Source: Candidatus Spongiisociaceae bacterium (lineage in GTDB: Bacteria; Actinomycetota; Acidimicrobiia; Spongiisociales; Spongiisociaceae). Taken from it: 64,000 nt of DNA. A program made the position numbers and the translations under genes. Every line of letters starts with the position of its first letter. The stretch's first letter is position 1. Under the pieces are notes generated by a model that had not been told where the DNA came from, did no database searches, and was given only the letters and a program-made list of their open reading frames with translations. The stretch covers positions 4,224,001 to 4,288,000 of the forward strand of contig CBDCOH010000002.1 in NCBI GenBank assembly GCA_965219685.1, written 5' to 3'. This document shows, in pieces, positions 17,910-18,458 of the stretch.

Positions 17910-18458
17910 ATGGCACGTATCGAAGTGATTCCCGACGACTCCTGGGACGGCGCGCTCGGCGAGCTCTACCCCCGGGTTGTCGATCGCGCGTACGGCCGCG
18001 TCGACAACATCCTCGCCGTGCACTCCCTCAACCCCCGCGGCATGGCTGCGCACCAGGGGCTGTACGAGTCGGCGATGGCCGGCACAGCGACGCTCCGTAA
18101 GGTCGAGCGGGAGATAATCGCCCTGGTCGTGAGCCTCGAGAATGACTGTCACTACTGAGTCGTCCACCACCGGCGCGGTCTGCGCCGGCTGATCCACGAC
18201 GACGAGCTTGTCGCAGAGATCGAACGGGACTGGGAGACAGCCGCCCTGTCACCCAAGCGGAGGTCGATGCTGAGGTTCGCGGTCAAGCTGACGACGGCGC
18301 CGGGCGCGATGGACGACGCCGACGTCGAGGATCTTCGATCGGCCGGTTTCTCTGATCGTGACATCCTCGACATAGTCGAGGTCGTCGGCTACTACGCGTA
18401 CGCGAACCGGGTTGCCGACGGTCTCGGCATCGAGACCGAACCCTGGATCAGCGACTGA
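17910..18458 (+). CDS. AhpD/carboxymuconolactone decarboxylase-like peroxidase-related selenoprotein (CxxU)
   Basis: REIIALVVSLEND-C-H-Y-TGA(18156-58)-VVHH continues in frame to ...LRSAGFSDRDILDIVEVVGYYAYANRVADGLG; hairpin just downstream of the TGA. Confidence 0.85.
18159..18203 (+). promoter_or_regulatory. Putative bacterial SECIS element
   Basis: Stem CCGGCGC(18170-76)/GCGCCGG(18182-88) with loop GGTCT starting 19 nt after the UGA; possible lower stem GTCGT/ACGAC. Confidence 0.7.

Follow-up and report, generated by a model that had tools for sequence, protein, structure and literature searches.

An AhpD-like gene of Acidimicrobiia with a predicted selenocysteine codon and a conserved downstream hairpin

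Background

The closest described relatives of the gene reported here are the AhpD-like selenoproteins with a CxxU motif, in which U stands for selenocysteine (Sec). They were presented as a new family of 27 Sargasso Sea sequences belonging to COG2128 (PMC1088965, 2005), and the Global Ocean Sampling (GOS) data comprised 299 members of 'AhpD-like 1' (COG2128, CxxU) and 70 of 'AhpD-like 2' (pfam02627, CxxU) (PMC2398784, 2008). The family was likewise given for sequenced genomes (PMC1794560), is entered as 'AhpD-like protein, TIGR01926, CxxU' in the table of a 2026 review (PMC13188914) and serves as a browsing example of BSepDB (PMC13326102). Here we analyse such a gene in a stretch of 64,000 nucleotides (nt) from a Candidatus Spongiisociaceae bacterium (contig CBDCOH010000002.1, positions 4,224,001 to 4,288,000; this whole stretch is hereafter called the window). 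Comparison with its relatives suggests that the in-frame UGA at codon 83 very probably encodes Sec in a protein that belongs to the AhpD-like 'peroxidase-related enzyme' family. An earlier note on this DNA, made from the letters alone, had remarked that AhpD-like selenoproteins are reported mainly from marine metagenomes, in agreement with the Sargasso Sea and GOS surveys.

The window gene is essentially the same as the described AhpD-like CxxU genes (Zhang, Fomenko & Gladyshev 2005; Zhang & Gladyshev 2008). It shares with them the family model, the CxxU motif and the existence of a Sec form together with Cys homologues, as well as a hairpin with an apical-loop G directly past the UGA. What distinguishes it is its host lineage, composed of metagenome-assembled genomes (MAGs) of Acidimicrobiia. 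No literature description of an AhpD-like selenoprotein gene in this lineage was found in a search that left the BSepDB entries and the supplements of the Actinomarina preprint outside its range.

A proton relay was delineated in Mycobacterium tuberculosis AhpD (Glu118/Cys130/His132/Cys133/His137) and in Pseudomonas aeruginosa PA0269 (Glu36/Cys48/Tyr50/Cys51/His55) (PMC3141380). The protein predicted from the window belongs to the same CMD/AhpD helical fold family and displays an identical spacing in Glu68/Cys80/Tyr82/Sec83/His87 (compared with M. tuberculosis AhpD and with PA0269, PDB 2O4D), the difference being that the second Cys is replaced by the putative Sec. In Deinococcus radiodurans, loss of DR1765, an AhpD-like protein, led to higher H2O2 sensitivity, and mutants of its CxxC cysteines complemented much less than the wild-type form (PMC8945050, a review). 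DR1765 is a Cys form, whereas the window protein would be a Sec form.

As for the decoding signal, the reference is the selenocysteine insertion sequence (SECIS) of Escherichia coli fdhF (NC_000913.3), in which the TGA is followed, after 18 nt, by GGTCTGC; the window displays the identical spacing and the identical 7-mer. Both hairpins start 11 nt past the UGA and lie within coding sequence. The stem sequence differs from that of fdhF, and the window hairpin is a perfect G+C stem of 6-7 bp closed by a 5-nt loop, without the long lower helix of fdhF.

Results

Gene organization and active site

The AhpD-like frame opens with an ATG and contains a single in-frame TGA before its terminal stop (Table 1). 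When this TGA is read as U, the central part of the translation is S-L-E-N-D-C80-H-Y-U83-V-V-H86-H87-R-R-G-L-R-R-L. The N-terminus, MARIEVIPDD, lined up with the starts of homologues in the protein alignment. In the list of open reading frames (ORFs) obtained with translation table 11, the gene is broken into an ORF at 17826-18158 and a 63-aa ORF at 18267-18458. The earlier note had rightly seen that the ORF track splits the gene at a TGA within the CxxC motif (C-H-Y-U-V-V-H-H) and that reading through it restores a complete 182-aa protein.

The read-through protein matched the NCBIfam model TIGR01926 over residues 28-177, a range that spans the UGA site, with 137.1 bits against a cut-off of 81.8, and Pfam CMD (PF02627) at 8.2e-13. 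Its structure matches were 2PFX (7.3e-30), 3C1L (2.9e-28) and 6K40 (4.3e-22), together with 2OYO and 2PRR; PA0269 (2O4D) was a more distant one (3.4e-6). Entry 6K40, named 'Alkyl hydroperoxide reductase AhpD', covers window residues 18-178 (4e-22) and is presumably the structure of DR1765. In sequence alignments to the solved structures 2PFX and 3C1L, the C-x-x-C pairs with C80..U83 and the His with H87. The proton-relay spacing E-x11-C-x-x-C-x3-H is present, with U83 at the position of the second Cys, and E68, C80 and H87 were each invariant in the 83 copies of the codon alignment described below.

Two related models were tried and rejected. For AhpD proper (TIGR00777), the score of 16.4 bits fell far short of the 191.95 required; the gene shares the catalytic residue set of M. 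tuberculosis AhpD but is no orthologue of it. NF041238 (AhpD_rel_CFYUT (seleno)protein), another AhpD-related selenoprotein model with, by its name, a C-x-x-U type site, gave 39.7 bits against a cut-off of 175; only the C-terminal part of this 357-aa profile was matched, and the window protein is no member.

Table 1. Coordinates of the AhpD-like gene, its functional sites, its downstream neighbour and related genes in other loci (L numbers designate loci of relatives)
Feature	Position	Strand	Remark
AhpD-like gene, predicted selenoprotein (TIGR01926 'peroxidase-related enzyme', Pfam CMD)	17910..18458	+	182 aa, U at residue 83
Glu68 codon, proton-relay Glu position	18111..18113	+	12 residues ahead of first Cys
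Cys80 codon (TGT)	18147..18149	+	partner of U83 in predicted selenenylsulfide couple
In-frame UGA, predicted Sec codon U83	18156..18158	+	codon 83, second CxxC-type position
His87 codon, proton-relay His position	18168..18170	+	4 residues past U83
SECIS-type hairpin	18170..18188	+	within codons H87-R93; conserved 6-bp core 18171-18176 with 18182-18187
Apical loop GGUCU	18177..18181	+	its leading G falls on the 19th nt past the UGA
Terminal stop TGA of AhpD-like gene	18456-18458	+	
F420H2-dependent quinone reductase (PF04075)	18249-19016 and 18463-18891	-	convergent downstream neighbour, two reading frames
Duplicate AhpD-like copies, L023	2707 and 10247		
Duplicate AhpD-like copies, L029	7094 and 11096		
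Duplicate AhpD-like copies, L054	10247 and 16833		
Duplicate AhpD-like copies, L006/L008			one contig
Redoxin/AhpC-TSA genes, W-U-G-C	L015:15808, L025:7164, L050:14474	-	~390 aa
SLH-domain + Redoxin/thioredoxin-like protein, F-W-A-E-W-U-P-T-C	L003:13833, L005:14675	+	

Conservation of the UGA among relatives

Relatives were collected by scanning genome contigs with a family-alignment profile whose search patterns excluded the TGA site itself. At least 591 stretches matched and 480 relatives were confirmed; the best 80 of these 480 were kept and correspond to 79 loci. All 79 come from MAGs whose titles give Acidimicrobiia, Acidimicrobiales or similar names, or else candidate genera such as Poriferisodalis, Aldehydirespirator and Spongiisocius. 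Some loci derive from one assembly (L006 and L008, on one contig; L020 and L027), and three (L023, L029 and L054) hold a second copy of the gene, giving 82 copies in the relatives and 83 with that of the window. Several relatives thus carry two TGA-bearing copies within 4-12 kb of each other, as expected from local duplication.

Identity of the relatives to the window protein ranged from 66 to 97%, so they do not represent one clone. TGA was found at the aligned codon in 79 of 79 loci and, counting the window, in 83 of 83 copies. The earlier note had named TGC or TGT in close relatives as the finding that would speak against recoding; the opposite was observed throughout the 82 copies. The C80-x-x-U83 site paired with Cys only in more distant homologues and in the structures 2PFX and 3C1L. 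Among orthologues, the UGA and both coding halves flanking it are conserved, as in the described CxxU family, and at the level of sequence the window gene agrees with AhpD-like CxxU proteins (TIGR01926/COG2128) in every feature by which that family is recognized.

A protein database search yielded 194 homologues from 390 candidates, and the 120 of them that were listed could be sorted by their state at the site. The large majority (95/120) were C-terminal fragments, some 100 aa long, whose start lies one or two residues past it (M/V-x-HHRRGLRRL), and five were N-terminal fragments ending exactly at ...C-H-Y. Cys occupied the site in 12 (P0005-P0008, P0012, P0016, P0019, P0020, P0069, P0081, P0089 and P0103), which is the Cys/UGA pairing that the earlier note had suggested looking for. 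W was found in four listed homologues, where it was probably introduced by a gene caller using a code with TGA as Trp, and L in one. The three remaining entries were odd forms (P0010, P0013 and P0113). In P0010 (112 aa) and P0013 (153 aa), the N-terminal part joins the C-terminal tail directly and the active-site region is absent; these two may be degraded paralogues.

Translation beyond the UGA

Both sides of the UGA were found to be under purifying constraint. The median ratio of nonsynonymous to synonymous substitution rates (dN/dS) against the window was 0.094 for codons 1-82 (computable in 81 of 82 comparisons) and 0.23, with a maximum of 0.35, for codons 84-182 (82/82 comparisons). The latter value shows that the part past the TGA is translated, selected coding sequence. 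Codon 84 was GTG in 39 of the 83 copies, and GTC (as in the window), ATC, GTT, ATA, GTA, CTC, ACC or ATT in the other 44. Since a start codon directly after the TGA occurs in those 39 only, reinitiation is not conserved and a split gene is unlikely.

TGA has not been reassigned across the genome. It is the stop of 24 of the 41 window ORFs (TAG, 14; TAA, 3) and the terminal stop of the AhpD-like gene itself in 69 of 83 copies. A window-wide scan for TGA codons with coding-like sequence on both sides returned this site and one other, at 38186. The latter was rejected as a second selenoprotein, being an ordinary junction between DeoC and aldehyde dehydrogenase genes, and the scan of the 64-kb window revealed no second TGA-interrupted gene.

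The hairpin downstream of the UGA

In the window, CCGGCGC (18170-18176) and GCGCCGG (18182-18188) are perfectly paired around the loop GGTCT (18177-18181). The stem begins 11-12 nt past the UGA and inside the ORF, which is where a bacterial SECIS is expected, and the hairpin belongs to the minimum-free-energy fold (-24.5 kcal/mol). The earlier note had described a 7-bp stem lying 19 nt downstream. Seven pairs are indeed present in the window, but only the inner six are kept in relatives; likewise, the distance of 19 nt applies to the first loop G and not to the stem, which starts 11 nt past the TGA.

The loop GGUCU was invariant in all 83 copies and includes the conserved apical G (GG/GU) typical of SECIS elements. 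Over the stem and loop, synonymous sites were nearly frozen: mean third-position entropy in the 83-copy codon alignment was 0.22 for codons 87-92, the lowest in the gene, against 1.00 for the whole gene. Arg88 was encoded by CGG in 80 of 81 copies and Arg89 by CGC in 78 of 79, while Gly90 was always GGT and Leu91 always CTG (83/83 each). Outside the hairpin, the likewise invariant Arg67 (CGC 48, CGG 21, CGA 13, AGG 1) and Arg117 (CGG 37, CGC 34, CGA 7, CGT 4) used a range of codons. GGT accounts for 13.6% of the 1363 Gly codons in window ORFs, and in all six other conserved Gly columns of the gene the codon varies.

Pairing was analysed in 72 distinct rows. The inner six pairs were formed in 71 or 72 of them, the outermost pair (18170/18188) in only 42. 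Pair 18/30 changed from G-C to G-U in 12 rows, and pair 16/32 stayed paired in L057 (G-U) and L067 (G-C), where both of its bases had changed and amino acids with them. RNAalifold independently yielded the same helix. The frozen synonymous sites of codons 88-91 and the pairs kept through changes show that the hairpin is under RNA-level selection.

Hairpins with a GGTCT loop and a stem of at least 5 bp were then counted in the window and the loci. Of 130 such hairpins, 83 lay 14-26 nt past an in-frame TGA that is flanked by open frames: 77 belonged to the AhpD-type gene, three to Redoxin genes (see below) and three to other places. The window holds exactly one GGTCT-loop hairpin after an in-frame TGA. 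The three others (L009:19550, plus strand; L029:10240, minus strand; L055:18436, plus strand) have their hairpin 14-22 nt past the TGA; they may be chance occurrences or additional selenoprotein genes.

Discussion

Predicted decoding and function

That the organism recodes UGA and has a Sec-dependent redox enzyme, as the earlier note had proposed, is supported by the TGA in every copy, by the dN/dS values and by the constraint on the hairpin. According to this prediction, the UGA at codon 83 would not be read as a stop during translation. On the fdhF paradigm, the GGUCU hairpin would recruit SelB carrying Sec-tRNA(Sec) while the ribosome holds the UGA in its A site, and Sec would be inserted at residue 83. 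The product would be a 20-kDa, all-helical protein with the relay Glu68/Cys80/Tyr82/Sec83/His87. By homology with AhpD, Sec83 may be activated by His87, Glu68 and water and attack a peroxide or an oxidized partner protein; Cys80 would resolve the intermediate, giving a Cys80-Sec83 selenenylsulfide that a thiol system would re-reduce. The protein would thus most likely cycle between a selenol/thiol form and the selenenylsulfide. Its homologues point to a role as a peroxide-detoxifying or peroxiredoxin-recycling oxidoreductase in which Sec takes the place of the second, catalytic Cys. No ahpC partner adjoined the gene in a Pfam scan of the window ORFs or in the neighbourhoods of the relatives.

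Several observations weigh against Sec insertion through this hairpin. The stem lacks the bulged U of E. coli fdhF. In that element, the G and U of the loop and the bulged U are contacts of SelB; the bulged U is specific to E. coli and is not known to belong to the general bacterial SECIS model. The fold energy of the window hairpin is not unusual (z = -1.31; 21 of 200 shuffled sequences were equal or better), and since the single-sequence fold is unexceptional, the case beyond chance is a comparative one. Formal covariation is also thin, because the stem hardly varies: two pairs changed on both sides (5 cells), a number of pairs that 83 of 500 shuffles reached. Conservation of the peptide HHRRGLRRL is partly a matter of the protein, since the Cys homologues P0005-P0008 retain it. 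Finally, neither the 64-kb window nor the roughly 1.5 Mb of the 79 flanks yielded tRNA-Sec, selA, selB or selD. ARAGORN detected no tRNA in the window, and none of the 22 that it detected in the 79 loci was tRNA-Sec; E. coli SelA, SelB and SelD, used as tblastn queries, gave no match at E <= 0.01 in the window and the 79 loci; regular expressions for SelD, SelA and GTPase motifs had no match; and a Pfam scan of the 41 window ORFs revealed no sel gene. All that follows from these searches is that the machinery does not lie beside the AhpD-like gene.

Reports of the machinery elsewhere in the class lend indirect support to the prediction. All 84 complete Actinomarina genomes (class Acidimicrobiia) were reported to possess selC, selA, selD and a divergent selB (bioRxiv 10.64898/2026.04.03.716425), and most bins of sponge symbionts were stated to have SelA together with SelB (Slaby et al. 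2017, PMC5649159). In supplementary file 2 of the latter study, whose columns were assigned to the header by hand, bin76 (Acidimicrobiia, OM1 clade) has two SelA, one SelB and one SelD, and bin134 no SelA, no SelB and one SelD. The statement of the earlier note that Sec use is uncommon in actinobacteria was thus too strong, in view of the Actinomarina genomes and of the sponge-associated bin76.

Alternative explanations

The gene could be a pseudogene, its TGA being due to a nonsense mutation or an assembly error. Gene finders do split it, and the adjacent minus-strand PF04075 gene is truly broken across two frames, so the assembly or the genome does contain damaged genes. The recurrence of the same TGA in all 83 copies (79 loci, 66-97% identity), the dN/dS of 0.23 past it and the frozen synonymous sites over the hairpin leave this explanation with a practically negligible probability. 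Termination at the TGA with a restart one codon further on, yielding two halves that assemble into a split AhpD-like protein, is also very improbable. The GTG directly past the TGA in 39 of 83 copies and the 95 'C-terminal' proteins among the 120 listed homologues are what such an arrangement would produce; but the other 44 copies, including that of the window, have neither ATG, GTG nor TTG at codon 84, the break would deprive the E..CxxC...H site, invariant in other respects, of its second redox residue, and the conserved hairpin would be left without a role.

A standard amino acid could also be inserted at the UGA, either Trp or Cys by way of a near-cognate or suppressor tRNA, or Cys with which tRNA-Sec is charged. 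The W found in four listed homologues would fit, although it probably reflects the code used by the gene caller, as would the failure to see Sec machinery in the window and the 79 flanks. On the other side, TGA is the commonest true stop (24/41 ORFs) and terminates the AhpD-like gene as well, so any read-through has to be local and to depend on a signal; the one present is like the SelB-dependent SECIS of fdhF in spacing and loop, and the residue aligned with the site is a redox Cys, as in the classic Sec/Cys pairing. We therefore regard a standard amino acid as unlikely. The hairpin might, lastly, have a different role at the RNA level, for instance in mRNA stability or in pausing translation, and stand after the TGA by coincidence. 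Rfam searches at gathering thresholds gave no match in the 64-kb window, and permissive ones over 18100-18300 gave chance-level hits only (mir-H3, E = 3; veev_FSE, E = 4.9), far under gathering scores; the absence of a matching family and the weak covariation leave room for such a role. Against coincidence stand the 83 of 130 GGTCT-loop hairpins placed 14-26 nt past an in-frame TGA between open frames and a UGA-loop distance equal to that of fdhF, and we give this possibility a very small chance.

Implications for annotation

Sec insertion at codon 83 being by far the best-supported interpretation, its main consequence is an annotation fix. Of the 120 listed closest database entries, 100 are halves of the AhpD-like gene, some of the truncated ones being named 'peroxidase-related enzyme'; public annotation almost always fails to recognize the gene in this lineage. 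With such truncated entries, redox inventories of these Acidimicrobiia miss a putative selenoenzyme, and the source organism probably uses Sec and requires selenium. The locus also provides a very clean natural coding-region SECIS candidate, with its invariant GGUCU loop and fdhF-like spacing in 83 copies, and this example could be used for training selenoprotein finders on high-GC actinobacterial MAGs. Knowledge of Sec decoding, or of the AhpD-like family, known since 2005, is not changed by it.

Further candidate selenoproteins in relatives

Two further gene families in the flanks of the relatives displayed an in-frame TGA at a redox motif inside a Redoxin/AhpC-TSA/thioredoxin-like domain (Pfam). 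In the Redoxin/AhpC-TSA genes with the motif W-U-G-C (Table 1), a hairpin CUGCC-GGUCU-GGCAG follows 20 nt past the TGA; its stem is other than that of the AhpD-like gene while its loop is the same. These genes, predicted from their sequences, make up another candidate selenoprotein family among close relatives and are an independent sign of Sec decoding in the lineage; they have no homologue in the window. In the genes encoding an SLH domain and the motif W-U-P-T-C, the downstream hairpin was less convincing, its loop lacking GG/GU. An SLH protein of the window (19227-20567) resembles the latter protein in the N-terminal SLH part only (39% identity).

There is perhaps an even chance that these observations reflect a large Acidimicrobiia clade with a hidden, systematically misannotated selenoproteome. 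It would be composed of the AhpD-like protein, sometimes duplicated, and of at least one Redoxin W-U-G-C family, served by one lineage-wide, fdhF-like GGUCU SECIS at a constant distance of 18-20 nt from the UGA. Were this true, the SECIS of the AhpD-like gene would be written into the conserved peptide RRGLRR, and RNA and protein constraints would thereby have frozen each other.

Neighbourhood of the gene and other features of the window

No conserved gene neighbourhood was observed around the 83 copies. The commonest neighbour, a PF04075-like gene, stood beside only 18 of them, so that no neighbouring gene points to a partner protein. In the window, this neighbour is spread over two ORFs, one matching PF04075 profile positions 2-92 (2.3e-25) and the other positions 92-126 (3e-5); it is a frameshifted pseudogene or results from an indel error near 18.6 kb. 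Its longer ORF extends with its tail over the 3' end of the AhpD-like gene, which is on the other strand.

Farther away, a 988-aa RCC1-repeat/FN3 protein is encoded on the minus strand at 4009-6975, and the adjoining 5.8 kb or so (6975-12769) contained no gene called by a simple GC3-based ORF filter. A nickel superoxide dismutase (PF09055) at 26812-27798 adjoins a S26 signal-peptidase-like gene on the opposite strand, and an SCO4226-like nickel-responsive protein is encoded at 55863-56240. The plus-strand cluster at 56410-61431 codes for a URO-D/MtaA-like methyltransferase, a B12-binding corrinoid protein, a RACo-type corrinoid activator with a 2Fe-2S domain and a pterin-binding protein, and looks like a corrinoid-dependent methyl-transfer (demethylation) system.

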